A stretch of DNA of 64,000 bases, from positions 1 through 64,000 of the IMG/VR virus record IMGVR_UViG_3300025929_000001. The stretch is one strand, 5' to 3'. Made by a program: the position numbers and the translations under genes. Below are positions 13,550 through 63,886 of the stretch, piece by piece. Each line of letters starts with the position of its first letter. Positions within the stretch are counted from its first letter, which is position 1. Origin of the DNA: a virus. A model generated the notes under the pieces. The model ran no database searches. It saw nothing but the letters and a program-made list of their open reading frames with translations, and was not told where the DNA came from.

Positions 13550-13719
13550 AGACGCGCTGTGTATGTGGTCATCCCGAGAACGAAACGATAGTGCATCGGG
13601 AGAATGGTGGATGCTACAGCAAAGGTGGGGATCAACCGCCACAGAAGATCCCCGTTTCCAATACGTTGTGGTCTGAAAAGGAAACAAGCCAAAGGCTTGA
13701 CCCTACAATACCACAATAG
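13546..13719 (+). CDS. small CxCxH protein (57 aa), not in ORF track
   Basis: GTGA overlap; MKTRCVCGHPE...H....C. Confidence 0.45.
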   Translation: MKTRCVCGHPENETIVHRENGGCYSKGGDQPPQKIPVSNTLWSEKETSQRLDPTIPQ

Positions 13720-13855
13720 TTTAAACGCTCGCTAGCGTGTTTTTATACCGGTGCACGCTAGCACACCTCCCCGCTATTAAAAACGCTTGCCCGCGCTGTT
13801 TTGTACCCTGCCGCGTGCGTTTTACACTACCCGCAGCAACTTCCGCAAATAACGC

Positions 13856-13885
13856 TTGCCTCCCGGTAACAGGCCACAATATACT
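13856..13885 (+). promoter_or_regulatory. sigma70-like promoter for the terminase operon (TTGCCT-18-TATACT)
   Basis: hexamers upstream of the terS RBS (GGAG). Confidence 0.55.
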
Positions 13886-13917
13886 CCATGCTATATTAAA
13901 TGCATCTGGAGTATTTC

Positions 13918-14442
13918 ATGTCGGAAGACTATTTCGGACCAATCGGCGAGCCTGAAGAAGGCCCGGAGCTAACCTTTCGTGAGAAAGCGTTACGCGACCA
14001 ATTTGTCGGCGAATATTTGACCGATTACAGCCCTTTGGCCGCTGCAATCCGCATCGGCTATCCCAAAGCATACGCAAAAGAGATGGCAGCGCGGTTCATG
14101 GAAGAACCGTATGTCCTGAAAAAAATCCGCGAGCAAGAATCTACCAGCGAAGATGTAAGCCCGGACGTCATGAAGAAACGCATCATGGCGGGTCTGGTGC
14201 GCGAAGCAAACGATCGTGGTCCGGGTTCGTCACAAGCAGCACGCGTTGCAGCATTGTCCAAGCTTGCACAGATGCATGGCATGGATGCTCCGCGGCGTAC
14301 AGAAATCACTGGTGCTGACGGCGCACCCCTCGGTGAAGGTGCATTCGTTGTGCCTGGCGTCATTACCATGGAAGAATGGGAACGCGCTGCGGAGCAGCAA
14401 CAGGCTGAGCTCGTTAAACCTGATGCTCCATCGGTTCACTAA
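13918..14442 (+). CDS. terminase small subunit
   Basis: FV.EYL.D....AAAIR.GY HTH; ARVAAL..L...HGM; EITGADGAPL; immediately upstream of terL. Confidence 0.88.
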   Translation: MSEDYFGPIGEPEEGPELTFREKALRDQFVGEYLTDYSPLAAAIRIGYPKAYAKEMAARFMEEPYVLKKIREQESTSEDVSPDVMKKRIMAGLVREANDRGPGSSQAARVAALSKLAQMHGMDAPRRTEITGADGAPLGEGAFVVPGVITMEEWERAAEQQQAELVKPDAPSVH

Positions 14443-21720: not shown

Positions 21721-24700
21721 ATGACCAAGGCTGCATTGCCGAGGAGAGTTGCTACCTCTCTGCCCCAAGAAACATCTAAGCCTGCCCGATTTACTGCACC
21801 GATGCGATTTGCAGCGGCTGCAAATCGGATGATTCCTCGCGATCTGTCTGGTAATAATTTCCATGCATTACCCGGCGGCAGTGTATCTCTTGTGCCCGCA
21901 CTGTACAACGGCGTCGGCTTACAATCATGGTTGCCAGGCGCTGGCGGCAGTGGGTCGATTCCCCTAACTGCATCTGCTTTGAGGTACGATTCTCCAATTA
22001 CAATGTTGGCGATTGTCAAGCCACCGTCAACCAGCACTTTCAACATTAGAACTTCAAGTACTACAGGGTCGCCCTTAATTTGGCAATTGAGCTCTACTGG
22101 ACTTCAGACCTTAACAATCTCAGGTGTTGGTAGTAAAGGGAGCACAGTCACGGCAATCCCTTTAGGGTCGTTCACTGCTATTATTTGTCAGTACACTCCC
22201 GGAACTACTGGCGGCACAAAATTCTATTTCCCGGGCACTACTCAAACGGTCGCGGGTAGTACGGGTAATGCTACAACTGGCACCGGTCCGGTGATATCTG
22301 GTGGCGGTACGGGTGCGGGACAGTGCGCACTCTATGTAGAATGGGATGGGATCTTAACTGACGCCGAATGTAGAGCGTTGCTGACAAATCCGTTCTCTGC
22401 CTTCGAATCTAACGCGCCCTACAGTAACCGTTCAAGGCTGCAAGTCAGGACTTCACCGGTTCGATACGTGCGGGATAGCGCTAACGGCTCGGATGTTGAT
22501 CCTGGTGTGTTCTGGTCTGAAATACAAGCGTTCGACGTTAACGGCGTAGCCCTTGCGAATTCGGCGAGTCAGTACACGTTCAGCCAAGCTGTTGATACAA
22601 GTTCTGTTGCAAATATACCCTATCTATATGACGGGTTGATGAACACGAACGGAGTGATTATCTCCGGCGCCGGCGTTCATACCGCTACTCTTGATCTAGG
22701 GTCAATCGTCCAAGTCTCAAAGGTGCGCATCGGTCACTACCCGACGGCCACCTTCCACAACACAAAGACGGAAATATCACCAGATGGTCAGACTTGGTAC
22801 ACGCTGTATGATTCAACTGTCTCTGGTGAGTATGTAGAAACAACCTCAGGCAAGAATTATCTGCCGCCAAGCTATACCTACACGGCACCCGTCGCATCGA
22901 CGCCGCCTACACTTCGCACGGACTGGTTCAACGCTACTGAATCGACGAACCTTAGTGTGGTCACGTCGACCACTGCACACGACGTCCTGATTGCTTACGC
23001 AGCTAGCGATAATAACAACACGAACTTTACATTTCCGTCAGGATTTACCGCACTACAACAGCTTCATCCGACATATGATGCCAGCGTACTGAACGTAGGC
23101 ATCAAGCAGGATGCATCTGGTAGTGAAGGTACGTTAACACTCACATCCCCTGATGCAATTATCGGTGGCGTATTAGCGTTCTCAAATGTTGACAACGTAA
23201 CGTCGTTGGACGTTGCGGCCCAGGGCGTGCTTGGTTCTGGTGGACCAGATTTTACCGCAACAGCGTCCCTAACCACCGTCACGAATGGCTGTCTGCTGGT
23301 CGCTATTGTAGACGAGGACGTAGCAAACCCGGTAAGTGTTACTTCAACTACGGTCGCTAGTTCTCCTGCGCTGACTTGGACTAAAGTTCGTCACATCAAC
23401 AATGGCGCATACGCAAACGTCAGCGTATTCACCGCTACCCAGACGACCAAGGGGGCCATATCCGTCACGTCAACATCGACGGGTTATACTGGTCAGTCTG
23501 GCATTGTGCTGCTGGCTTTGCGTCCAGCGACCACTGCTGCGGCTGGAACCACGTACCCCGTTAGTATCACTGAAGCTGTAACCGCATCGGACACCAATGT
23601 AAGTAACGGATCGTTGCCAGTAACTCTTTCAGAAGCTGCGGTTGCTGCCGACAGTCTCAGTGCTATTAAGACCGCCCCGGCTAGCATCTCCGAAGCTGGA
23701 ACTGCGGCCAACACCGCTACAGCATCGACGGTCGCACCTGTCACAATCTCCGAAGCTGCGACTGCTGCGGATAGCTCTGTTGTTATCAAAACTGCACCCG
23801 CTAGCATCTCCGAATCTGCAACTGCTGCTGAAAGCTCGACGCGCACCACTGTAAGTCCGACCGCAATCTCTGAGCCCGCAACTGCCGCAGACGCTGTTGC
23901 AACGACGAACGTTAGTGTGGTCAACAGCGCTGAAGCCGTAACTGCTGCGGAAGGTTCTGACGCGCTTGTCGTACGTGCAGTTAGCATAGCTGAATCTGCA
24001 ACTGCTTCCGACTCGTCGACTAACACGGTAGTTCTGGGCGTGCCTGTTACTGCACAGCTCTGTTATTTAGAGATTGATTGGGATACCCATGATCTCGGTA
24101 TCTATCCGGGTCGTATTAACGCTATTCGTCTGTTGGACGCACAGGGTAACAATCTACTCATCGGCGCAACTTGGAATAGCAATCTTGCCAATGGCGGAGA
24201 AAAAAGCACATATACGGATGGTAACAACATATATCTCGTTGATGAAAATCCGAGCACGTATGCTGACTTATCTTCATATGGCAACGCAGGCGCTAGTGAC
24301 TATATAGGTTGGAGTTTTGAGAATTCACCATACCTGACTGAGGACGGCTATGTCGACGCTGTCGCATTGGAGATCGATTGGTCGCCTGCGCCTGGTGACT
24401 CTCGTATCCCTAACTTTTACATTTATGGTTATCCCCTTGAGGGCAGCGACTTCCTTGAGATCAACGCCTATACTCCGGACAATTTTGCTAACGGCTTGAC
24501 CCATATTGATTTACCACAAATCACGGACATACCTAAGCCTGCTGTCAGGGGTAAGTCTCTGCGGTTAGAATTTTCTGGTTTAGAAGTTCCGTCCAATGGT
24601 GCTGCAAGTCTGCAGATATTTTGGCTGTACGGCACAGACCGAGTAAATGAGCCTGTTTTTTCAAACAGAACCTCTGGCGGATCAACAACGAATCAGGTTA

Positions 24701-27213
24701 CATACTCGTTAATCAAAGGCTCTATTGCGCCCGACCATGATTACGGTTATACGTCTGGGGTAATGCCTTTAACCAACATCAATCTTGGCTATGACATAGT
24801 TCACAATACATCCTTCTTTGCGGCAATAATGCCCGACCCAGAGGGGAATGCAACAATTCAAGTCGATACGGTTGGCGGGCTTCTGTATAGGCCTATCTCG
24901 TTTAACGTCCAAGCCGTAACCGTAAATCAAGCCGCGACTGGTCAAGCGCAGCTTGCAAGTCTGAAGTTCTTTATAACTTATGACGGTATCCATTATCATC
25001 AGCAATATTACACCGACACGTATGAGATATTAACTCCGCAAGAGCCTGCATATCTCGTTAATGGTAACTTTAGTAATGACTTTCTGGTAACGCCATTTGC
25101 CGAAGAGACAATTACAGGCACAATCTACGCAGTAGGTGTGTCTGAGAACGCTGGCGCTTATGATGACGCAGTCGTATCCGCACAATTGCCGGTCACAGGC
25201 GCTGAAGCGGGTAGCTTGGTTGACGCCGCAACTGCGTCTAGTGTCTTGCTGGTGGTCACTAACGAGTCTGCAACTGCTAGCGAATCGGAAACTGCTGCGG
25301 CGTCTAAAGGTGCTGCTATCACAGAGACTGCTACGCTAACGGACTCTGAAAGCAATACGGTTGCAGCTAGCGCAGCTATCAGCGAAGCTGGCGCTCTGTC
25401 TGACTCCGAAAATAGCACTGCTGTCAAGGGTGCTGCAATCTCCGAAGCGGGTACGCTCGCTGACGCTGAAACTGTGACGTTGGTTGCGGTTAGTGTGGTC
25501 AGCGAACCCCTTACCGGTAGCGATGCAAGCACTGTGCAGATGCAGAACCTTGCAAGCGTCAGCGAAGCTGGTAGCGCAAACGACCAGTCTGCAACGGGTG
25601 CGAACGCTGTGGCGGTTGCTGCTAGCGAGTCCGCAACGCCTGCGGATAGCTCCAGCGTAGCTGCTATCGACGCAGCCTCAGTTAGCGAGTCGGGTTCACT
25701 GGTGGATGCACCAAGCGTAACCGCGTCGTTCGTATCTGCAACGACGGAATCCGCTACGTCCGTTGATTCGCAAACGGTAAGCGGCGTGCGTCCTGCATCA
25801 ACGTCGGAAGCTGCTACCGCCTCTGACAGCAACACTGCTGGAACTGCTACGTCTGCAAGCAACTCGGAGTCGGGTTCTGCTGCTGACACAACCGTTGCAG
25901 CAAAAACGACCAACAGCGCAATCTCGGAACCGTTGACTGCAAGCGACACCGAGTCTGTGAGTGCTGTGGTGGTGGCTGCAAACACGGAGTCCGGTGCTGC
26001 AAGCGATGCGCTGACCGTAACCGCTATCAACTTGGTCGCTGTTAGCGAACCTTTGTCTGCAAGCGAGTCAGTCACGCTGCTGGCTGCTGGCACTGTAACC
26101 ATCACAGAAACGGTCGCACTGGTAGAAGCTACGAGCGTTAATGTCGCGGGTACTGCTGCTATCACTGAAGCTGGTGGCGCTGCGGATGCGCCTGTTGGAC
26201 TTAGAACTACCAACGCGGCAGCTAGCGAGGCTGTAACGCCGTCTGATAGCGAATCCGTATCCGCTATTATGGTTGCTACGGAAACGGAACCCGCAACCGC
26301 GAGCGAAAGTTCCAGCCTTACGCAAGCTACTACCGCGAGCACAACCGAAGCTCTTGCTGCTGACCACACTCAGGTTCTTCTTGCTGCGGGTACGGTCACA
26401 GTTGTTGAGGTCTTGAACGCTGCTGAAGCGCCAACGGCTGCTGCAACTGTCAACAGCGCAGTGACCGAATCCGGTAATCCCGCGGAGTCTGTTGCTGCTA
26501 CCGCAGTCATGCCAGCCAACACCACGGAGCCGGCAAGCGCCGCGGAACAAGTTGCGCAAGGCAGTGTGGTCAACGGGAATACGTCGGAAGCTGCTGCGCC
26601 AACGGACGCTAGTGCGCCTACATTATCCAGCACGCGCAACGTGACGGAATCCGCAAACGCCCTGGAGTCGGTCAGCAATACGGCCGCGCTAGGTGTCAGC
26701 GTCGCAGAAGCTGCAATTAGCTCCGATACATTGGTTGTGTCTGCGCAGTACCTTGTGGCGCAGGCGGAAGCTGCAACGCTCGCAGATGCAGCAATTGGTG
26801 GATACAACACCAACGCGATAGTCTTGAACCCTGCAACTGCTGGTGACAGTGTTGATGGTCAGAAGATAAATGACGCGGGTGCTGCTATCACAGAAACACT
26901 GGTGCCTAGCGAGCAGTCTGTAACCCGTTTGGATTATGGTGTAAATGTCACGGAAGTTGTAGACAGCGATAGCGATGCAAGTGTGCAGATGATCTATGTT
27001 GTGTCACAGACAGAACTTGCATCGTTGCGTGAAAGCGTGTATGTTTACTTCCTAACGGAACACAAGCAATATCCGCTCGCAGGTAAGTCAAGTGCATTCC
27101 CGTCAGCATCTAAAGCAACCAGCTATCCGCTTAACGGCCAGTCCATTGTGTACCCGTCAAGCTCTAAGGCAAGAAATTATCCACTGTACGGTAAAAATAG
27201 GAGCTACCCATGA
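21721..27213 (+). CDS. giant 1830-aa Ala/Ser/Thr/Glu-rich repeat protein with lectin-like domains (putative fibre)
   Basis: LamG-like N-terminus, discoidin-like TLDLG..EISPDG.TW, two blocks of 20-aa xxE.....D repeats, C-terminal 9-aa YP repeats. Confidence 0.8.
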   Translation: MTKAALPRRVATSLPQETSKPARFTAPMRFAAAANRMIPRDLSGNNFHALPGGSVSLVPALYNGVGLQSWLPGAGGSGSIPLTASALRYDSPITMLAIVKPPSTSTFNIRTSSTTGSPLIWQLSSTGLQTLTISGVGSKGSTVTAIPLGSFTAIICQYTPGTTGGTKFYFPGTTQTVAGSTGNATTGTGPVISGGGTGAGQCALYVEWDGILTDAECRALLTNPFSAFESNAPYSNRSRLQVRTSPVRYVRDSANGSDVDPGVFWSEIQAFDVNGVALANSASQYTFSQAVDTSSVANIPYLYDGLMNTNGVIISGAGVHTATLDLGSIVQVSKVRIGHYPTATFHNTKTEISPDGQTWYTLYDSTVSGEYVETTSGKNYLPPSYTYTAPVASTPPTLRTDWFNATESTNLSVVTSTTAHDVLIAYAASDNNNTNFTFPSGFTALQQLHPTYDASVLNVGIKQDASGSEGTLTLTSPDAIIGGVLAFSNVDNVTSLDVAAQGVLGSGGPDFTATASLTTVTNGCLLVAIVDEDVANPVSVTSTTVASSPALTWTKVRHINNGAYANVSVFTATQTTKGAISVTSTSTGYTGQSGIVLLALRPATTAAAGTTYPVSITEAVTASDTNVSNGSLPVTLSEAAVAADSLSAIKTAPASISEAGTAANTATASTVAPVTISEAATAADSSVVIKTAPASISESATAAESSTRTTVSPTAISEPATAADAVATTNVSVVNSAEAVTAAEGSDALVVRAVSIAESATASDSSTNTVVLGVPVTAQLCYLEIDWDTHDLGIYPGRINAIRLLDAQGNNLLIGATWNSNLANGGEKSTYTDGNNIYLVDENPSTYADLSSYGNAGASDYIGWSFENSPYLTEDGYVDAVALEIDWSPAPGDSRIPNFYIYGYPLEGSDFLEINAYTPDNFANGLTHIDLPQITDIPKPAVRGKSLRLEFSGLEVPSNGAASLQIFWLYGTDRVNEPVFSNRTSGGSTTNQVTYSLIKGSIAPDHDYGYTSGVMPLTNINLGYDIVHNTSFFAAIMPDPEGNATIQVDTVGGLLYRPISFNVQAVTVNQAATGQAQLASLKFFITYDGIHYHQQYYTDTYEILTPQEPAYLVNGNFSNDFLVTPFAEETITGTIYAVGVSENAGAYDDAVVSAQLPVTGAEAGSLVDAATASSVLLVVTNESATASESETAAASKGAAITETATLTDSESNTVAASAAISEAGALSDSENSTAVKGAAISEAGTLADAETVTLVAVSVVSEPLTGSDASTVQMQNLASVSEAGSANDQSATGANAVAVAASESATPADSSSVAAIDAASVSESGSLVDAPSVTASFVSATTESATSVDSQTVSGVRPASTSEAATASDSNTAGTATSASNSESGSAADTTVAAKTTNSAISEPLTASDTESVSAVVVAANTESGAASDALTVTAINLVAVSEPLSASESVTLLAAGTVTITETVALVEATSVNVAGTAAITEAGGAADAPVGLRTTNAAASEAVTPSDSESVSAIMVATETEPATASESSSLTQATTASTTEALAADHTQVLLAAGTVTVVEVLNAAEAPTAAATVNSAVTESGNPAESVAATAVMPANTTEPASAAEQVAQGSVVNGNTSEAAAPTDASAPTLSSTRNVTESANALESVSNTAALGVSVAEAAISSDTLVVSAQYLVAQAEAATLADAAIGGYNTNAIVLNPATAGDSVDGQKINDAGAAITETLVPSEQSVTRLDYGVNVTEVVDSDSDASVQMIYVVSQTELASLRESVYVYFLTEHKQYPLAGKSSAFPSASKATSYPLNGQSIVYPSSSKARNYPLYGKNRSYP
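23560..27030 (+). repeat. 60-bp (20-aa) degenerate tandem repeats: 8 copies at about 23560-24040 and about 31 copies at about 25135-27030
   Basis: ISEAATAAD-type units align vertically in the 60-nt lines. Confidence 0.85.
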
Positions 27214-27773
27214 CACTCATCGTTGAAGATGGATCCAAATTACCGGATGCCGAATCTTATATCTCTGTTGACGAATGCACCGCATATCATGTTAAGCGGG
27301 GTAACACCGTTTGGGGTGATATGTCTTTGCAGGAGATGGAAGAAGCGCTTGTTCGCGCAACAGATTTCATGCGAGCCCGTTACCGAGGCAAGTGGAAAGG
27401 TCACGTTGCAACTTATGAACAGGGTTTGGATTGGCCGCGTATGGGTGTCAAGGTTACTGACGGGATATTGGCTAGTGGCCCTTATCCGTATGTGACTGCA
27501 TATCGTCGGCCTTACTTGCCTCCACAGATATTGCCGGATAACGTCATTCCGAAAGAAGTAAAGAACGCTTGCGCTGAGCTAGCATTCCGCGCTGCCCAAG
27601 GCCCGTTGATCATTGATGAAACCAGGCAACCAATCCGTGAGACTGTTGGCCCCATCACTGTTCAATATAGCGAGTACACATCGCAGCAAGTGTCCTATCC
27701 AATGATTGACGATATGTTGCGACCTTTCTTGACCACCGGAGGCAATAGTAGCGTCAAGCTGACCCGCGTTTAA
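27210..27773 (+). CDS. head-tail adaptor (DnaT-like domain family)
   Basis: LIVEDGS..PDAESYISV, AL.RATD, Q.LDWPR, IP.EVK.AC.ELA, ETVGPITVQY. Confidence 0.85.
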   Translation: MTLIVEDGSKLPDAESYISVDECTAYHVKRGNTVWGDMSLQEMEEALVRATDFMRARYRGKWKGHVATYEQGLDWPRMGVKVTDGILASGPYPYVTAYRRPYLPPQILPDNVIPKEVKNACAELAFRAAQGPLIIDETRQPIRETVGPITVQYSEYTSQQVSYPMIDDMLRPFLTTGGNSSVKLTRV

Positions 27774-27790
27774 GAGTTGTATTTTAGTCG

Positions 27791-27819
27791 TTGCATGTGG
27801 TAAAGGACTGTGTTACTAT
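27791..27819 (+). promoter_or_regulatory. promoter for neck/tail genes (TTGCAT-17-TACTAT)
   Basis: same TTGCA -35 family, in the intergenic gap. Confidence 0.65.
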
Positions 27820-27848
27820 CCGCGTAGTTCGTCTAAACAGAGATTCAC

Positions 27849-28229
27849 ATGGACTTCTACGATAGAGCCGCTGCAACGACCCTGCGCATGATCAAGCAAT
27901 ACGGCATGCCTGTGACGTTGCGCCGGCAGTCCGTAGGAAACTATGATCCCTCTACCCTCGGTGCCACAGTGCAGACCGAGGATTCGACACGTTATATGCT
28001 TAAGCTGGATCAACCAGGCTCGCAGATTGCGCAGCGGTTCGGCAGCAACTTCGAAAAAGAAACTTTGCGTGAACGCAATGAGAAGTGGGGCTACATGGAT
28101 GCAAACGGCCCTGCTCCGCAGTTGCAAGATCGCATTATCATGGAAGGTATCGAATACACCCTCCAAGACGTGCAGATGTGTGGCCCGGGCGGCAAAGTTG
28201 TGTTCTATCAGCTTGTGATGCGTGCATAA
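27849..28229 (+). CDS. head closure protein
   Basis: FYDR....A..MI..YG..VTL.R....YDP; gene position. Confidence 0.75.
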   Translation: MDFYDRAAATTLRMIKQYGMPVTLRRQSVGNYDPSTLGATVQTEDSTRYMLKLDQPGSQIAQRFGSNFEKETLRERNEKWGYMDANGPAPQLQDRIIMEGIEYTLQDVQMCGPGGKVVFYQLVMRA

Positions 28230-28726: not shown

Positions 28727-29367
28727 TGTCCATTCTTACCATTAAGTCGATATTAGAGCAAGCGATTGCCGACATGCCGGGATTGATCCCTAGTGTGGCT
28801 ATCGAAGCGTCTAACAATGGTGAGTTCCAAACTGCGGAGCCACACGGACTTGTCAACGGTTTAGTTGTAGAAGTATCAGGCCATACAGGTTCCGTCCCCG
28901 ACCTGAATGGTGAGTATTATGTTGTTGTGACGGCTGCGAATCGGTTTAAACTGCAACATATACTAACGAAAACCCCAATAGCAAGCGCGGCACCGGGGGT
29001 AGGCGGGGTTATAATCGCTAAGCTAATAGCATGGGAAGGGGTAAACTTTAAACCGTTTGCCGGGGTTCCTATGCAGCGTGTTAATCTCATCTGGTCACAG
29101 CCGCAAAACCCGTCGTACGGTGACAATCTAGCCCGCGAATCTGGATTTATGCAAGTCACCTTGTATTACCCGTTAGGCTTCGGAACACATGATGTATTAA
29201 CAAGAGCTCAGTTGATCAAGTCAACTTTCCCAAGGGGACACTCTTTCAGCAATAACGGAATTACGGTGCACATCGATGGAACCGCAGAAATTATGGGCGG
29301 CGTACCACTCGAGGAGCATTATGTCGTACCTGTCAGAATCCCCTTTTGGGCGGACGTTTACAATTAA
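28726..29367 (+). CDS. tail terminator (DUF4128-like) with inserted HGL..G beta module
   Basis: AWEGVNFKP, G.MQV...YP.G.G......RA..I...F.RG, PVRIPF. Confidence 0.75.
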   Translation: MSILTIKSILEQAIADMPGLIPSVAIEASNNGEFQTAEPHGLVNGLVVEVSGHTGSVPDLNGEYYVVVTAANRFKLQHILTKTPIASAAPGVGGVIIAKLIAWEGVNFKPFAGVPMQRVNLIWSQPQNPSYGDNLARESGFMQVTLYYPLGFGTHDVLTRAQLIKSTFPRGHSFSNNGITVHIDGTAEIMGGVPLEEHYVVPVRIPFWADVYN

Positions 29368-52238: not shown

Positions 52239-52454
52239 ATGCAATACGTTCTCATTATCCAATCTCTGCTGTCCCTGATCAAAGCAATCGAAGCTTTCAT
52301 GCCCAATAGCTCGGGCAAGGAAAAACTCGACGCGGTGTTAGCTGCCTTGGAAGGCCTGTACGGTCAAGTCCCGAACGTGATCCCTGTGATCAACACGTTT
52401 GTGGCCACACTGCACGCCACCGGCATCTTCTCCAAGAAACCTTCAGGTGCCTGA
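52239..52454 (+). CDS. small amphipathic protein
   Basis: AGGAG SD; G.EKL..VL...V...H..G.F.K. Confidence 0.7.
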   Translation: MQYVLIIQSLLSLIKAIEAFMPNSSGKEKLDAVLAALEGLYGQVPNVIPVINTFVATLHATGIFSKKPSGA

Positions 52455-52873
52455 TGTTTGGTTATGACCTCGACGAGCTAGAAAAGCTATCCAACTGTCT
52501 GTTCTTTGCGGTTGCGCTTTTCTGCCGTCGACTCGTCAAGGGGGAGCGCGGTTATTTCACGATGCGCAAATCGGACTACGGTCGCTTCCCTCACTTCCTC
52601 TATGTGCGCGTAGACCCGCTTGGCAAAGAACGCTTTGTGTCTTTCGTGCCCAACGAACCTATTCCACGAGACTTCCCGCCACCCTTCTTTAAGGGTCATG
52701 TACAGTGGGGAGATCCTAAGCCGACTAAAGGGTGTCAAAGAAATGAGCTACATGACTGTTTGGCTGATTGTATGGAACATGTGGTGGATTCAAATGCACC
52801 CTGCAAGCACTACCAGCAAACACCCTGCCGCAAACGGCAAGCACCCGGCAAGCGCATAAAAATAACCCGCTAG
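52454..52873 (+). CDS. hypothetical protein
   Basis: TGATG-coupled; SNCL.FA..L...RKS..G.FPHFL...F.G.V.WGD. Confidence 0.6.
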   Translation: MFGYDLDELEKLSNCLFFAVALFCRRLVKGERGYFTMRKSDYGRFPHFLYVRVDPLGKERFVSFVPNEPIPRDFPPPFFKGHVQWGDPKPTKGCQRNELHDCLADCMEHVVDSNAPCKHYQQTPCRKRQAPGKRIKITR

Positions 52874-52897
52874 TACCTACCTAGCGGGTTTTATTTT
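52856..52897. terminator. bidirectional intrinsic terminator between the convergent arms
   Basis: ATAAAAAT-AACCCGCTAG-loop-CTAGCGGGTT-TTATTTT. Confidence 0.8.
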
Positions 52898-52918
52898 AAA
52901 CAGCTTAAAACGCTTGTA

Positions 52919-53524
52919 TTAGCTTTGCGTCATCATGTAAGACGTCCAAGGGTGCATTTCATCTGTGCGGTATTCGAAGTCCTCCAAGACCAGCAGCATT
53001 TCCCGGAACAGTACCAGCGCGCCTTCGAACTGGACTAATAGCCCGTTCTCTTGTTGAATCAAGTTATCCAGGATTGCGGTCATTGGGTTGTCGTCTGTTT
53101 TAGACGACATGCGGTTGCGCACATTGGTGATGCGCTCGATCTTAGCGGTGCTAGTAGACTCGCGCGCTTCGAACTGTTTAACCTGCTGTTCCGTCATCTG
53201 ACGCATGTGCGACAGAATGCTAGTGTGGTTAAAGTCAATACGCGGGTCGTTCATAAGCGCATTCAACATCGCTGCAAACTCCTGCATTACCCGGTCACGC
53301 AGTGGAGGTTGGTTCTTTCCAACTTGCCCGGTGCGGTCGTATTCTTCACGCCGCAGCACGTCACCTAAGATGTCGTAAGCTTCTTGCACGCGCTTGAATA
53401 TAGTACCATCGTCATTACCTTTATCCGGATGCCACATCTGCGCAAGGCTGCGGTAAGCCCTTTTAATTTCATCTGCGGTAGAGTCTTTCGCAACTCCGAG
53501 GACTTCATACAGGTTCTTGTTCAT
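52919..53524 (-). CDS. J-domain (DnaJ-like) co-chaperone
   Basis: LYEVLGV...EIKRAYR.LA..WHPDK...F..VQEAYDIL.D..RR..YDRTG. Confidence 0.9.
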   Translation of the reverse strand: MNKNLYEVLGVAKDSTADEIKRAYRSLAQMWHPDKGNDDGTIFKRVQEAYDILGDVLRREEYDRTGQVGKNQPPLRDRVMQEFAAMLNALMNDPRIDFNHTSILSHMRQMTEQQVKQFEARESTSTAKIERITNVRNRMSSKTDDNPMTAILDNLIQQENGLLVQFEGALVLFREMLLVLEDFEYRTDEMHPWTSYMMTQS

Positions 53525-58730: not shown

Positions 58731-59660
58731 TTAAAAAAGTTGTTGGGACATTGCACACGGATACTGATAGTTATTGCGTCTAGCATCCTCGTTTACAAGG
58801 TCGTTGAGCTCCATGTAACCTAGCATGTTGTAGATTGCGCGGCTCTCGTAAATCGAGCTAAGCCGATCATAATTAAAACCCTTACGATCCAACATGTTAG
58901 CGAGCTGTTGCTGCTCTAACTCTGTAAGTGTGGTAAAATGACGCCCGTTCTCATGCTTGCTTGGACTGTCCTTGGAAACCGCGATTGGGCCGTGTTCACT
59001 GGTAAAGATGCTTCCAAACGCAGCAGCCTGAATCCAGGAGGACGAGTCACAAGAATGCCAAGGGTAGCGCATCATCAGGTTGGGCGACGTCATACCAAAC
59101 CCATGCACTTTGAGCTTCGCACGACCCGACCCGTCCATCATGCGTTCCCACACGCGGTCTAACCACACTTCTTGGTCTTTAGCCGACTTACCGACCAGAC
59201 CTCCAATCGTGATGTACGAGTAGCGCTCCACATACCAGTCAAGATAACGTATGTCCTCACCGTAGTGGAAGCAGGGTAGCGGTTTAGCATCCTGCCGTTC
59301 CATCTCGAGTTGGTTTTGCCAGGTCTTTAGCGGATCACCAATGCCGTCAAGTACGGAAGCCATGACAGCACCATCTTCAACGCGTAGGATGTCCCGGTTG
59401 CGACGGATGTAATCACAATAATCATCAATGCTAATATGCACGCCAAGGCTGTGAGCCGAGAAAGCACCTGAGTCCAGGAACACCTTGTGGCCTTGTTGTC
59501 TGATGACATCGACGAAGCGCTGTCCAGATATGTAATGATAGGATTCCAAAATGTGGGGTACACAACCGACGATTTCTTTTTCGATGTCTGTGAGTTTTTC
59601 ATAACGTGCCTGTGTCTCTCGATAGTTATTTGTGAAAACTGCCGCAAGGAACAAATTCAT
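58731..59660 (-). CDS. dpdA: DpdA-like DNA 7-deazaguanine transglycosylase (TGT fold)
   Basis: FLDSGAFSA, LD.IGD, PCFH.GE, IGGLV, VHGFG, PW.SCDSSSW; clustered with folE/queDCE. Confidence 0.8.
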   Translation of the reverse strand: MNLFLAAVFTNNYRETQARYEKLTDIEKEIVGCVPHILESYHYISGQRFVDVIRQQGHKVFLDSGAFSAHSLGVHISIDDYCDYIRRNRDILRVEDGAVMASVLDGIGDPLKTWQNQLEMERQDAKPLPCFHYGEDIRYLDWYVERYSYITIGGLVGKSAKDQEVWLDRVWERMMDGSGRAKLKVHGFGMTSPNLMMRYPWHSCDSSSWIQAAAFGSIFTSEHGPIAVSKDSPSKHENGRHFTTLTELEQQQLANMLDRKGFNYDRLSSIYESRAIYNMLGYMELNDLVNEDARRNNYQYPCAMSQQLF

Positions 59661-60160
59661 TTGTTTAAATCCTCCAAACTAATACGGTTGCGCTTAGCCT
59701 TATTCTCTGATTCGGTAAGATATTGCAAATTGCCAAGTACATGTAAACCCGACACTAATTCACCTTGCAGCGGAATAATGTGGTCAACGTGCAGACCTTC
59801 AGGACAATTAGCATAAAACGCTTCTATTAAATCAAGCTCTGCCCAAAATGGTACGCGCATTAAACGTCTGGCCCTTATCAAGCTTTGACTAGCCCGAATC
59901 TTTACCGCATTTCGTGCATAGTAATTGCGTTGCAGCTCTCGTGATCGTTCACGATTTGCCTGACGCCATTCTACGGTTTCTTGGTTCTTTTTCTTTGCAT
60001 GCTTAGCATAGGACTTCTGCGTATGCTCTCGCTGACAGGTTGCGCAACCTCCCGTCACATAGCGAATATCGATGTGCCCAAACTTGCAGGGTTTGCCCGT
60101 GAAGTAATGTTTTAATCCGCGGGCTTTTGCTTCCTTGCAACTTATGATTTCCACAATCAA
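59657..60160 (-). CDS. HNH homing endonuclease
   Basis: A.A.GL..YFTGKPC..GH...RY...C..C; HVDHIIPLQG..VSGLHV..NLQ.L...EN..K.N. Confidence 0.9.
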   Translation of the reverse strand: MIVEIISCKEAKARGLKHYFTGKPCKFGHIDIRYVTGGCATCQREHTQKSYAKHAKKKNQETVEWRQANRERSRELQRNYYARNAVKIRASQSLIRARRLMRVPFWAELDLIEAFYANCPEGLHVDHIIPLQGELVSGLHVLGNLQYLTESENKAKRNRISLEDLNK

Positions 60161-60387
60161 TCCACCTTAATACCGAACGCTTCCAGTTTTTCTTCCAGCG
60201 CATCGAGTTCTTGTAAGAGTTCGCGCAACACATGCGGACGAATTTTATCGACAAAGTCGTCGTTTTGATACCGACCGCCAAAAGTGACGCCCAACGCGAC
60301 ACCACTTTGGATTTCTCGGTAGACTTTCCGCTTGTCCACGTACAGTTGTGATATAGCGTTTGCTTCTTGCATATCGCTAAGTTTCAT
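60157..60387 (-). CDS. hypothetical protein
   Basis: AGGAG SD. Confidence 0.65.
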   Translation of the reverse strand: MKLSDMQEANAISQLYVDKRKVYREIQSGVALGVTFGGRYQNDDFVDKIRPHVLRELLQELDALEEKLEAFGIKVD

Positions 60388-60443
60388 TGTGGTAAAGCTC
60401 CTATAATAGCGCTGCCGTACGTTTAAACAGCGGGCAACGCGTT

Positions 60444-60477
60444 AAAAAAGCGGGTACACCCCAAAGCATACCCGCTT
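60444..60477 (-). terminator. intrinsic terminator (minus strand)
   Basis: AAGCGGGTA-loop-TACCCGCTT followed by TTTT on the - strand. Confidence 0.7.
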
Positions 60478-60500
60478 GATTTAAAACGCTTAAAACGCGT

Positions 60501-60899
60501 TTAAACCTTTGGGTCTTCCGCTGGAAATTCGGACGACACTGCCTGGTCTGCGACCTTGGCGTCAACAAACTTGCCCGTACTGTTCACGGTCTTTGGCGAC
60601 AACTTGCCAGCGGCAATCTCAGCGGCCGAAACTGCACCAGACAGGTCGTACTTGGAAGCTTGCTCTTTCTGGTAAGGCATCCAGCAAGCATACGCGCCGT
60701 TCGGCGGAGTTTCGTCGCCTTGCACCAGATACAGATCACGCAGTGCGAACGGGGTGCCGGTGTAGTCGAAACCACCGACGTTGATCTTGTTGTCAGCATG
60801 CACATAGCAGACCAGCGCGGGTTCCGGCTCGGTACCGGGTTCGTTGCGAAAGACCAGTACGACGCGGCCGACGGTAGGTTTGATGATAGGTGTGGTCAT
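60501..60899 (-). CDS. conserved phage hypothetical protein
   Basis: IKPTVGRVV...A.V..V....IN...D..G...WMPYQ. Confidence 0.75.
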   Translation of the reverse strand: MTTPIIKPTVGRVVLVFRNEPGTEPEPALVCYVHADNKINVGGFDYTGTPFALRDLYLVQGDETPPNGAYACWMPYQKEQASKYDLSGAVSAAEIAAGKLSPKTVNSTGKFVDAKVADQAVSSEFPAEDPKV

Positions 60900-61315: not shown

Positions 61316-61939
61316 TTACATTGCGATTTTGAGGAACTCTGCACGAGTCTCGGCCTGGTCTTTCATCACACCGCGCAGAGCGGAAGTAACAGTGTGATGT
61401 CCCTGCTGGCAAATGCCGCGTGACTCCATGCACATGTGCCTAGCTTTTATGACAACACCGACGCCCTTTGGCTGCAAGTGCAATTGCAGCGCGTCTGCGA
61501 TCTGGCAAGTAAGACGTTCTTGCACTTGGAGGCGACGTGCAAAAGCGTCAGCAAGGCGAGACAGTTTGCTAAGACCAACAATATTACCATCAGGGATATA
61601 AGCAATAGTAGCGGTGCCAAAAATATCAGCAAGATGATGCTCACACTTCGAGTAAATCGGGATGTCTTTAACGACGACCATTTCATCATAACCCTCCGAG
61701 CCGTCTTTGAACACCTTGAGGAGTTTAGCGATGTCGACGGAATACCCGCTAGTCCAGTGCTTCCAAGCTTTGACCACACGCGCTGGCGTTTCTGCCAAAC
61801 CTTCGCGGTCTGCATTCTCACCTTGCACGACGCCGCCAAGCAGGTCGTAAATAATCCCTTCCTTGCTCTTTTGGGCAAGGTAGTCCATCTCGCGTTCTTC
61901 CTCGATCGCGGTCAGTTGTGCGTTGATATTGTTATCCAT
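61316..61939 (-). CDS. folE: GTP cyclohydrolase I
   Basis: REGL.ETP.RV, S.CEHH, GLSKL.R, RLQVQERLT.QIA, H.CM..RG. Confidence 0.96.
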   Translation of the reverse strand: MDNNINAQLTAIEEEREMDYLAQKSKEGIIYDLLGGVVQGENADREGLAETPARVVKAWKHWTSGYSVDIAKLLKVFKDGSEGYDEMVVVKDIPIYSKCEHHLADIFGTATIAYIPDGNIVGLSKLSRLADAFARRLQVQERLTCQIADALQLHLQPKGVGVVIKARHMCMESRGICQQGHHTVTSALRGVMKDQAETRAEFLKIAM

Positions 61940-61942
61940 GTC

Positions 61943-62392
61943 TCACCCTGTATAAACTGCTGAGTTAGCGCCGTGTTCTTTTACTTCGCATGACACAAGC
62001 TTAACGCGACCGATTTGTCTAACATCGAACAACCATTGCACGACCATGTCGAATACCATCTTTGCGAACATCTCGCAACCGACTGCCGGAACGGTAATGA
62101 CTTCTGCTATGCCTAAGCCAGCAAGCGCACAGATTTCGTCATGTTGCGGGTCATCTTCTGCGACCAGCAATTTATGGTCGAAGGTATCTTGCAGCATCTT
62201 TTTAATGCTAGCAAGACCGCCAAAGTCAATGACCCACATGCGCTCGTCGAGCAGTTCCGACTCGAACACCAGCTTGACCGCTATTGCATAGCCATGCAGA
62301 TATTGGCAGTGTGAATGCGTTGCACGCCATTGACGGAATGCGCAGCTAAGGCCAATATCATGCCCCCATTGTTTTGTGCTTTGGAATGGCAT
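61943..62392 (-). CDS. queD: 6-carboxy-5,6,7,8-tetrahydropterin synthase
   Basis: RQWRA.HSHC..LHGY, WVIDFG, FDHK, GCE, V.E...N.A. Confidence 0.9.
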   Translation of the reverse strand: MPFQSTKQWGHDIGLSCAFRQWRATHSHCQYLHGYAIAVKLVFESELLDERMWVIDFGGLASIKKMLQDTFDHKLLVAEDDPQHDEICALAGLGIAEVITVPAVGCEMFAKMVFDMVVQWLFDVRQIGRVKLVSCEVKEHGANSAVYTG

Positions 62393-63174
62393 TATACCTC
62401 CGCAGACGTGCCGCGTTCGATGTCGTAGTTGCTGCTGAGCGGCAGCTCCATCAGACCAGCTTTAACCGCACGCATCACCAGCGGGTCAGGGACACCGGCT
62501 TCTTCGAAGCCTTTTGCACGCAGCAGCGTCGCATGGTCGTGACCGGTCGGCGGATACTTGCCGTCGTAAGATGTGTGGCTATACGCCAGCGCTGCCATGC
62601 AATCGTGTAAGCTCATTGCAAGCTTGACCGATTCCGCCTTGGTAAGCGACATCAGCGGGGTCAAAATGCGCAGTGGTGGGATTGTGCCAGCTTCGCCGGT
62701 GAAGGTACCATAGTTGCAAGCTTCTTGCAGGGTGTTGATAAATACTGCGCGGCAGTCAGGATACCCGCCGTTATCTTCCTGGCAAACACCGGTCACAAGG
62801 ATGTTGCAGCCCAGGACGTATGCGCGGTTCGCTGCAACGGTGATGAACAACTGGTTGCGCATGGGTACGAAGGTCTTTTCCAGACCGCCGGGCAGCGACT
62901 GATGGTCAGCGTACTGTTCGAGCTCGACCGACTTGTTAGTCAGTGGGGACGTACCAGCGAGGATGCCGTCGCCAAGACGGATGAACTCGTGCTTCTCGCG
63001 GGGAATACCAGCCATCATGGCAACGTGCTGTGCGGCGTCGAGTTCGATGCGGTGTTTTTGACCGTAGTCGAAAGTCACGCAGTGCACGTCGTAACCTTCG
63101 TTGATTGCCCAGAACAGGCAGGTCGTGCTATCTTGACCGCCGGACAGAATTACAAGTGCCTTTTGCTTAGCCAT
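62392..63174 (-). CDS. queC: 7-cyano-7-deazaguanine synthase (Zn-cysteine-less variant)
   Basis: SGGQDSTT, FDYGQKH..E, TFVP.RN..F, GYPDCR..F, TPL....K. Confidence 0.92.
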   Translation of the reverse strand: MAKQKALVILSGGQDSTTCLFWAINEGYDVHCVTFDYGQKHRIELDAAQHVAMMAGIPREKHEFIRLGDGILAGTSPLTNKSVELEQYADHQSLPGGLEKTFVPMRNQLFITVAANRAYVLGCNILVTGVCQEDNGGYPDCRAVFINTLQEACNYGTFTGEAGTIPPLRILTPLMSLTKAESVKLAMSLHDCMAALAYSHTSYDGKYPPTGHDHATLLRAKGFEEAGVPDPLVMRAVKAGLMELPLSSNYDIERGTSAEV

Positions 63175-63184
63175 TTTTAGACTC

Positions 63185-63886
63185 CTATTCAACATCAATT
63201 ATCTTGTGGGTCTGCAATTGCAGGATGTAACCATGCTTCATGCAGCTAGCTTTGACCGCATCGACGTTGACCTTGTAAATGACTTCGTCTTTGGGGTCCA
63301 TGGGCTGCACATAGATAGGCCTGGTATTGTCTTTGGGCGGCCGAGCAAGTTGCGGCGATGCTGTGTGGCCAAGCGCTTGGACTGGCAAACCGTCCGCGTC
63401 GTTAAGGCTGTCAGCGCTTAAGACGTATTTGAAGGCGTTGATATGGCTGAGCAGCTTGGGGCTGACCTTACCCGTCTTGGGGCTGCAAATGACCACAACC
63501 TTAGAGGGGAAGTCCTCCGGCGGTGCGAGCGTGCCGTTAGTCTCGACCTGAACGGTGAAACCTGCCGACAACAGCTTTTTGCATAGCGGGGTGATGTTTT
63601 GGCGGAATGGTTCGCCGCCGGTTATGACAACCAGGCAAGGCTTGTCAAGTGGGTTAAAGAAGAACACCTGATCGACTACGTCATGCATCGACATTTCCTT
63701 GCGACCAACCGTGTAGTCGGTATCGCAACCTGGGCACTGTAGATTACAGCCAGCCAGACGGACGAATACAGCGGGGTGTCCGCTGAAAGGGCCTTCGCCT
63801 TGGATTGTGTAGAAGATGCTATGAACCGAGAGGATGATGCCGTTTGAGTCCCGATATTTTTCAATCGGTTGTTGGTTCTGGTTCAA
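63185..63886 (-). CDS. queE: 7-carboxy-7-deazaguanine synthase (radical SAM)
   Basis: IFYTIQGEG...G.PAVFVRLAGCNLQCPGCDT, VVITGGEP, VETNGT, SPK, LQTHK; TTG start after GAGG. Confidence 0.95.
   Translation of the reverse strand: MNQNQQPIEKYRDSNGIILSVHSIFYTIQGEGPFSGHPAVFVRLAGCNLQCPGCDTDYTVGRKEMSMHDVVDQVFFFNPLDKPCLVVITGGEPFRQNITPLCKKLLSAGFTVQVETNGTLAPPEDFPSKVVVICSPKTGKVSPKLLSHINAFKYVLSADSLNDADGLPVQALGHTASPQLARPPKDNTRPIYVQPMDPKDEVIYKVNVDAVKASCMKHGYILQLQTHKIIDVE

Follow-up and report, generated by a model that had tools for sequence, protein, structure and literature searches.

GA/TC-free islands in the genome of an uncultured phage with a DpdA-type 7-deazaguanine system

The target words of DpdA-dependent DNA modification are known for two cultured phages. 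In the 60.6-kb Pseudomonas phage iggy, the 7-deazaguanine dPreQ0 is placed by DpdA at a strict GA motif, with >97% of GA sites modified (PMC10484667), and in Escherichia phage CAjan dPreQ0 occurs at GA and GGC (PMC7544227), in agreement with an earlier sequence-only reading of the DNA described here, which named GA among the modified contexts of CAjan. Here, we analyze the 95-kb genome of an uncultured phage, assembled from the metagenome of a microbial fuel cell (IMG/VR virus record IMGVR_UViG_3300025929_000001; 95,417 bp), and in particular a 140-bp stretch at positions 52791-52930 in which GA and TC are both missing, so that neither strand has a GA. The window corresponds to the initial 64 kb of the record, and positions above 64,000 are those of the full record. 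Because the record termini overlap by 127 bp, the assembly is circular. Among sequencing runs, a search listed one with this DNA, probably the source sample itself and available as contigs, and no RNA run.

The absence of GA/TC from this and other islands of the genome is real, highly non-random, and specific to GA/TC. The positions of the islands are conserved across a family of dpdA-positive phages, including iggy with its measured GA-only modification. We regard the chances as evenly balanced that the 140-bp stretch is an inter-arm terminator region and one of several cis-acting stretches kept free of the DpdA target. The link of the islands to DpdA is supported but not proven.

The sequence-only reading had credited the phage with DpdA alongside FolE, QueD, QueE, and QueC. 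All five were found, QueE as a radical-SAM QueE-like gene, and the phage thus has both components of a DpdA-type 7-deazaguanine system (Queuovirinae-like), the DpdA gene and the FolE/QueD/QueE/QueC set:

58731-59660, minus strand: DpdA, a DNA guanine transglycosylase homologue (phrog_887, E = 6e-81)
61316-63886, minus strand: preQ0 pathway genes FolE, QueD, and QueC with the radical-SAM QueE-like gene

The models PF01227, PF01242, and PF06508 score above their cut-offs in the preQ0 genes. The QueE candidate reaches 28.1 bits with Radical_SAM (cut-off, 29.5), and the Pfam TGT model PF01702 did not detect this phage's DpdA. The DpdA protein is 59-63% identical to DpdA of iggy, CAjan, NP1, 9g, and HD01; the closest characterised enzyme is that of CAjan (63%), and identity to the iggy enzyme is 59%.

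Like the phage analyzed here, iggy has a DpdA homologue, a FolE/QueD/QueE/QueC cluster beside polymerase, clamp, and helicase genes, a two-arm genome, and islands at the junction of the arms, in a phrog_7864-type linker, and at the early-arm start. Unlike in our phage, which is known from sequence alone, modification in iggy has been measured. The four GA/TC-free islands of iggy (171, 161, 157, and 152 bp) are distributed over its own convergent junction (27694-27854), the homologous linker gene, an Ala/Gln/Pro-rich low-complexity gene, and a site near the early-arm start. CAjan has the closest characterised DpdA and the same gene neighbourhood, but its longest GA/TC-free run is 81 bp, which is not significant, and its 69-bp junction run contains GGC/GCC. 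The iggy paper does not discuss intergenic, depleted, or GA-free regions (PMC10484667), and in the literature that we searched, regions without GA or without modification are nowhere described for 7-deazaguanine phages.

Absence of GA/TC and its specificity

GA and TC together occur at 0.114 per position genome-wide. In 52791-52930, 15.8 are expected and none is seen, while the same 140 bp carry 17 AG/CT; the stretch is exactly a maximal 140-bp run, as the sequence-only reading had reported. That reading had also put the probability of the run at (7/8)^139, about 1e-8, a figure that applies per start position only. The improbability itself is upheld by simulations and shuffles. The eight longest GA/TC-free runs of the genome measure 168, 140, 111, 101, 93, 86, 82, and 79 bp, whereas a geometric model gives a longest run of ~77 bp. 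In Markov simulations of the full genome (300 genomes per order), the longest runs were 109 bp (order 1), 110 bp (order 3), and 123 bp (order 5), and both the 140-bp and the 168-bp run exceed this maximum of 900 simulations. None of 200,000 shuffles of the island's own bases lacked GA/TC. Chance or a compositional artefact is therefore a practically negligible explanation. It draws some support from the fact that the dinucleotide was picked after inspection, that low-complexity DNA can miss any word, and that other classes have occasional outliers. However, neither simulations nor shuffles reach the observed run, GA/TC is the sole one of six two-member dinucleotide classes with such an excess of runs in this genome, and the pattern recurs in independent assemblies and cultured phages.

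As a mirror control we used the AG/CT step, whose base composition is identical to that of GA/TC. Over 1,237 bp of non-coding islands, the odds ratio is 0.01 for GA/TC vs. 0.77 for AG/CT, and the genome has 220 windows of 120 bp with ≤1 GA/TC vs. none with ≤1 AG/CT. When every 8-mer that occurs in more than one place among the islands is masked, the 357 steps left over should include 44 GA/TC but include none. Alignable island pairs of related phages show 28 GA/TC-creating differences vs. 64.5 expected (the pairs are not independent). The islands make up ~1.5% of the genome, and elsewhere GA/TC has its normal frequency.

The absence extends into codons. The longest GA/TC-free run of the genome, 65014-65181 (168 bp), is coding and specifies a Pro/Ala-rich linker of a phrog_7864 protein whose gene adjoins the helicase gene. 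Amino acid composition was considered as its cause and ruled out by synonymous codon resampling, in which 11.6 GA/TC are expected and 0 of 20,000 resamplings gave zero; no other coding stretch of the genome deviates as far (z = −4.4). At the arm junction, the GA/TC-free stretch includes the last 27 codons (from about codon 113) of the gene at 52454-52873, for which synonymous resampling gives 4.9 GA/TC expected and 0 seen (P(0) = 0.002).

Islands in relatives with and without dpdA

With a DpdA profile, we retrieved 80 IMG/VR loci, and polymerase relatives without dpdA served as the comparison set. GA/TC-free and AG/CT-free runs of ≥90 bp were counted after de-duplication:

dpdA-positive, 72 loci, 1.28 Mb: 41 GA/TC-free runs, 0 AG/CT-free runs
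dpdA-negative polymerase relatives, 55 loci, 0.93 Mb: 5 GA/TC-free runs, 4 AG/CT-free runs

Loci with at least one GA/TC-free run are significantly more frequent in the dpdA-positive set (Fisher test, P = 9e-5, uncorrected for shared ancestry, which weakens the link to DpdA). The islands of dpdA-positive loci recur just 3′ of the polymerase gene, ≤700 bp upstream of dpdA, and in the phrog_7864 linker. At the first of these positions, islands of 91-167 bp are present in at least 10 dpdA-positive lineages, vs. runs of ≤71 bp in dpdA-negative relatives; AG/CT-free runs there are ≤84 bp. The junction islands of nearer relatives have the box types of our phage, with TT(T)AAA(A)CGCGCT, a hairpin, and then cccTTGCCG; TTGCCG boxes follow the terminators in relatives' islands. 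The terminator stems in these islands vary in sequence between phages, and all are without GA/TC. In the closest junction-bearing relative (G001), the contig ends about where dpdA would lie.

Homologous phrog_7864 linkers in many dpdA-positive lineages are unrelated in protein and DNA sequence and typically have 0-1 GA/TC vs. 6-8 expected, although the comparison window was chosen as the minimum and the P values are optimistic. Synonymous GA/TC avoidance was not seen in CAjan-type phrog_7864 homologues.

The comparison of relatives with and without dpdA, which the sequence-only reading had proposed, favors the dpdA-positive phages in its counts and also yields one island equal to theirs, with the same types of motif, in a dpdA-negative phage, an outcome that goes part of the way towards the refutation which that reading had named. 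In this phage, G013 (93% complete), which is without DpdA, Que, or phrog_7864 genes, three GA/TC-free runs (57, 82, and 140 bp) lie together in an iteron-rich region. The region consists of eleven GGTAGGGCC iterons, unique A/T-rich sequence, and a TTAAAACGGG box. A regulatory region of such kind can thus be GA/TC-free without DpdA. Its iterons (GGTAGGGCC/GGCCCTACC) stand in both orientations at 23460-23800 of G013, in a 330-bp GA/TC-poor region that looks like an origin or master control region.

Anatomy of the junction and of the other islands

In a self-trained open reading frame map, the genome has two gene arms, one on the plus strand from 510 to 52873 and one on the minus strand from 94725 down to 52919. 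Because the plus genes end at 52873 and the minus genes at 52919, the 140-bp island lies at the meeting point of the arms. The plus (late) arm carries thymidylate synthase, the small terminase at 13918, very large structural genes, and small membrane proteins. The minus (early) arm carries SSB, a Cas4-type exonuclease, helicase, QueE/QueC/QueD/FolE, DpdA, clamp, DNA polymerase, and a DnaJ-domain protein. The features of the junction are as follows:

52791-52930, both strands without GA: 140-bp GA/TC-free stretch at the convergent junction of the late (plus) and early (minus) arms
52454-52873, plus strand: last gene of the plus arm, 139 aa, a conserved family without assigned function, with a variable C-terminal tail inside the island
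52796-52853, plus strand: three 13-nt direct repeats GCACCCKGCAAGC at 52796, 52830, and 52841, and two copies of CACCCTGC
52824-52841, minus strand: 7-bp hairpin/palindrome CTTGCCG-TTTG-CGGCAAG, of the TTGCCG..CGGCAA type that recurs in relatives' islands
52858-52896, both strands: predicted bidirectional intrinsic terminator, whose stem is preceded by an A-run and followed by a T-run
52895-52915, plus strand: boxes TTTAAACAGC (52895) and TTAAAACGCTT (52905), common to the islands at 60.4, 13.8, and 0.2 kb
52919-53524, minus strand: DnaJ-domain gene, the last of the minus arm, with its last four codons and stop inside the island

The predicted terminator stem (52864-52890; 10 bp, 6 GC pairs, 7-nt loop) was detected on both strands, and the fold of the region has a z score of −2.96 vs. 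shuffles. Bidirectional intrinsic terminators are known between convergent operons. The one predicted here shares with them a GC-rich 10-bp stem, flanking A- and T-runs, and a place between convergent genes, but such a terminator would account for ~40 of the 140 bp and gives no reason for the exclusion of GA/TC. The 52454-52873 open reading frame is a real gene, because its product shares ~90 strongly conserved N-terminal residues with five homologues; beyond them, the tail varies and is longer in this phage. Homologues of the product were found in a few Logan/ENA assemblies only, and profile scans of viral and metagenome contigs with this family gave no match. A megablast of the junction region against the phage collection also gave no match, and a metagenome scan with the polymerase returned distant relatives only.

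No sigma-70 promoter (TTGACA-like and TATAAT-like boxes at 16-18 bp spacing) was found in 52400-53200. As for an iteron origin, the junction has three 13-nt repeats and A/T boxes, with no array comparable to the eleven iterons of G013. GA or TC is present in the consensus TTGACA, the DnaA box TTATCCACA, the IHF core ATCAA, the CRP site, and the Shine-Dalgarno cores. A consensus −35 box, DnaA box, IHF core, CRP site, or Shine-Dalgarno core is therefore impossible inside an island, and promoters within islands, if any, would have to use variant sequences. This bears on several of the binders that the sequence-only reading had suggested, such as an origin factor or a host nucleoid-associated protein, whose consensus sites of the DnaA-box and IHF kinds cannot lie in these stretches.

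Other non-coding islands lie upstream of minus-arm genes at 60.4, 74.1, 79.6, 82.7, 83.2, 86.0, 88.0, and 91.6 kb, 5′ of the small terminase gene at 13.8 kb, and in the divergent inter-arm region. Those in the window, with one weak coding island, are these:

96-245: C/A-rich GA/TC-poor island with free runs at 96-177 (82 bp) and 201-245, in a ~1-kb divergent non-coding inter-arm region
13769-13842: 74-bp GA/TC-free run upstream of the small terminase gene (13918-14442)
28942-29075: weak coding island, 4 GA/TC vs. 15 expected, with GTTTAAAC at 28944
60400-60514: island with one TC upstream of the gene at 60157-60387 (minus strand), with TTTAAAC/TTAAAAC boxes and a maximal free run at 60400-60478 (79 bp)

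The sequence-only reading had listed four such places as similar to the junction. They are indeed poor in GA/TC relative to the 13-18 expected, but they are not free of them, with counts of 2 (97-244), 3 (13701-13860), 4 (28942-29075), and 1 (60400-60514). Its motif positions were all reproduced: TTTAAACAGC at 52895 and 60422, TTAAACAGC at 205, TTAAAACGCTT at 52905 and 60481, and TTAAAAACGCTT at 13777. Of the GC-rich hairpins that it saw in three islands, the scanner confirms only the one at 52864-52890; that at 60446-60475 (minus strand; 9-bp stem, 12-nt loop, T6 tail) can be read in the sequence, its loop exceeding the scanner's limit. Next to the terminase-side island, the plus strand is GA-free throughout 13700-13909, and a promoter-like TTGCCT-18-TATACT follows at 13856-13885. 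The small terminase gene near 13769-13842 is the sole packaging-related (pac/cos) pointer at an island.

The islands are rich in palindromic boxes, and their enriched words reach 10-15x expectation. The 8-bp palindrome GTTTAAAC, a candidate site of a dimeric regulator, has nine copies vs. ~1.5 expected (13719, 28944, 60421, 60499, 65570, 77596, 82755, 86114, and 91575), almost always in intergenic islands. TTAAGCGCTTAA and AAACGYRCGTTT also recur in islands, GGTAGG-type words and T-tailed hairpins are common, and TTAA-core tracts ~10 bp apart are readable in 91567-91677. In the divergent inter-arm region, four or five GTTGCCTGG iterons (95205-95297) are followed by ~350 bp (within 96-460) whose plus strand is almost only C/A; the region could be an origin or early control region.

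The coding island at 65014-65181 may hide an origin or some other cis-element within a gene. The ori of phage lambda lies within the linker-coding part of gene O. For the coding island alone, the two cases share a DNA-level constraint on a flexible linker and a position beside the replicative helicase gene; the resemblance does not extend to an iteron array or AT-rich unwinding element. The AlphaFold model of the phrog_7864 protein (pLDDT 90.3) has no match in Foldseek, a PDB sequence search gave chance-level matches only, and the ESM Atlas gave unnamed viral clusters only. The VIA-align matches of its C-terminal three-helix bundle were a mixture of helical and winged-helix domains at Z 5-6.5, below the tool's stated noise level. 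The product of a nearby gene, 64047-64631, is rich in Ala, Lys, and Glu in its N-terminal half and shares its C-terminal domain with the phrog_7864 protein; its iggy homologue is annotated as "putative transcriptional activator," and the gene carries a 448-bp TA-free run (64194-64641).

Elsewhere in the genome, the plus strand has 25 copies of TGTGGTCA and 15 of GTGTGGTCA, far over chance (at 22900-24100 and elsewhere), some of them within the 60/120-bp repeats of a 1581-aa gene (22468-27213). Hammerhead-like CUGAUGA...GAAA words are readable in three minus-strand early-arm spacers (79.7, 81.8, and 82.7 kb). Rfam reports no hammerhead there; with Rfam 15 at gathering score, the whole genome had 0 matches on both strands.

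Interpretation of the islands

Under the reading that the islands are never-modified cis-elements, the junction island would be a boundary element between the two convergent gene arms, and ~10 other cis-acting stretches would likewise be kept GA-free on both strands. Because both mapped DpdA relatives convert GA to 7-deazaguanine, the islands would be the sole parts of the genome without modified guanine, and a DNA-binding protein would meet them in the same form whether the DNA was modified, as in virions, or newly made and not yet modified. We infer that DpdA of this phage targets GA and only GA, that avoidance of modification is a selected property of the islands, and that proteins read them. 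As a general rule, phages with a GA-reading DpdA would have purged their cis-acting DNA of GA, giving sequence-encoded never-modified windows whose missing word predicts the target motif. The purged DNA would comprise the arm-junction terminator, the early-arm terminator/operator/promoter modules, the region 5′ of the small terminase, and the phrog_7864 linker site. To this rule we give slightly less than an even chance. Phages are known to avoid restriction or modification target words genome-wide. In both cases, selection would remove a short word read by an enzyme; in the present genome, the word would be read by a modifying enzyme of the phage itself, is avoided only locally, and has its normal frequency elsewhere.

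The proposal that DpdA targets were purged, already made in the sequence-only reading, is favored by the specificity for GA/TC, the synonymous codons, the enrichment in dpdA-positive loci, and iggy, and several observations weigh against it. By the GA-only rule of iggy, 52791-52930 holds no target word on either strand. By the GA-and-GGC rule of CAjan it does, with GGC twice and GCC, and the islands together hold 29 GGC/GCC in 1,405 bp (0.021 per bp, vs. 0.029 genome-wide). The island would thus be modification-free only if the enzyme acts like that of iggy and not like that of CAjan. Further points on the same side are the GA/TC-free region of G013, the long GA/TC-free runs of the dpdA-negative L211 and L007, the lack of islands in several dpdA-positive clades (including L133-L140), and the lack of significant islands in the dpdA-positive cultured phages CAjan, 9g, and HD01. 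Moreover, 140 bp of GA-free DNA is more than a mere binding site would require, GA/TC is at its normal level in most intergenic regions of this genome, and overall non-coding depletion of GA/TC is alike in dpdA-positive (0.91) and dpdA-negative (0.93) loci. The last two observations also bear on mutational decay of GA in all neutral DNA, a candidate that we rejected: with discrete islands and no general non-coding depletion, simple decay of modified sites is ruled out.

The main alternative is that the islands are a by-product of motif-dense regulatory DNA, in which terminator hairpins, palindromic operators, and iterons (GTTTAAAC, TTAAGCGCTTAA, AAACGYRCGTTT, GGTAGG, TTGCCG..CGGCAA) happen to have consensus motifs without GA/TC and DpdA is uninvolved. 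The enrichment of island words, GTTTAAAC among them, speaks for this account, as does normal GA in most other intergenic regions. So do the dpdA-negative G013 and L211, where GGTAGGG(CC) iterons and TTAAAAC boxes make up islands of the same length. Yet the unique sequence left after masking of the motifs is just as free of GA/TC, hairpin stems that differ among phages all avoid the two words, linker islands unrelated in sequence across lineages have only the absence of GA/TC in common, and AG/CT is not depleted. In the dpdA-negative relatives, GA/TC-free runs are also no commoner than AG/CT-free ones, as against 41 vs. 0 in the dpdA-positive set. We hold this account to be unlikely, while giving it real weight. 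That the islands are instead a DNA-shape or wrapping signal independent of modification, namely bent DNA of 140-170 bp with A/T tracts ~10 bp apart, we find improbable. Candidate wrappers would be the small terminase, an initiator, or gyrase at a site where convergent transcription builds supercoils. Such a signal would fit the clustering of island lengths at 110-170 bp, the TTAA-core spacing in 91567-91677, the island directly 5′ of the small terminase gene, and the presence of an island in one dpdA-negative phage. It fits poorly with the GC-rich coding islands (65014-65181 and those of iggy), which have no A/T tracts, and with the rarity of islands in dpdA-negative relatives, and we know of no shape rule that excludes GA/TC while allowing AG/CT.

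Selection might also come from another reader of GA/TC, such as a methyltransferase, a defence system that recognizes a short word with GA in it, or a nuclease of the phage or its host. The avoidance in one region of the dpdA-negative G013 and the presence of GGC in the islands are compatible with such a reader, but avoidance of host enzymes is usually genome-wide and not local. Since no candidate gene was found, the association with dpdA stands, and the iggy motif is exactly GA (PMC10484667), we think this quite improbable. At the RNA level, selection on transcribed spacers could act against an RNase site or against GGAG/GAGG words, which resemble Shine-Dalgarno sequences: GA is part of all Shine-Dalgarno cores, and GA-free runs are slightly longer on the sense strand than on the antisense strand (for example, 13700-13909, 85966-86151, and 91567-91738). 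However, all GA contexts are avoided, not GGAG alone, and TC is missing along with GA. In its left half, the junction island is expected to be transcribed on one strand only, because this half lies upstream of the terminator for plus transcripts and beyond it for minus transcripts. The loss of both words where one-strand transcription is expected makes an RNA-level cause very improbable.

If the islands are indeed never-modified cis-elements, hypermodification would carry a cost in protein-DNA recognition that phages pay by editing their own sequence. The target motif of the modifying enzyme would be readable from the word missing in the islands, and the islands would provide a purely computational locator of origins, operators, and packaging or termination sites in uncultured modified phages. 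Engineered or therapeutic Pseudomonas phages of the iggy-like and NP1-like kinds would then have short regions where recoding may harm.

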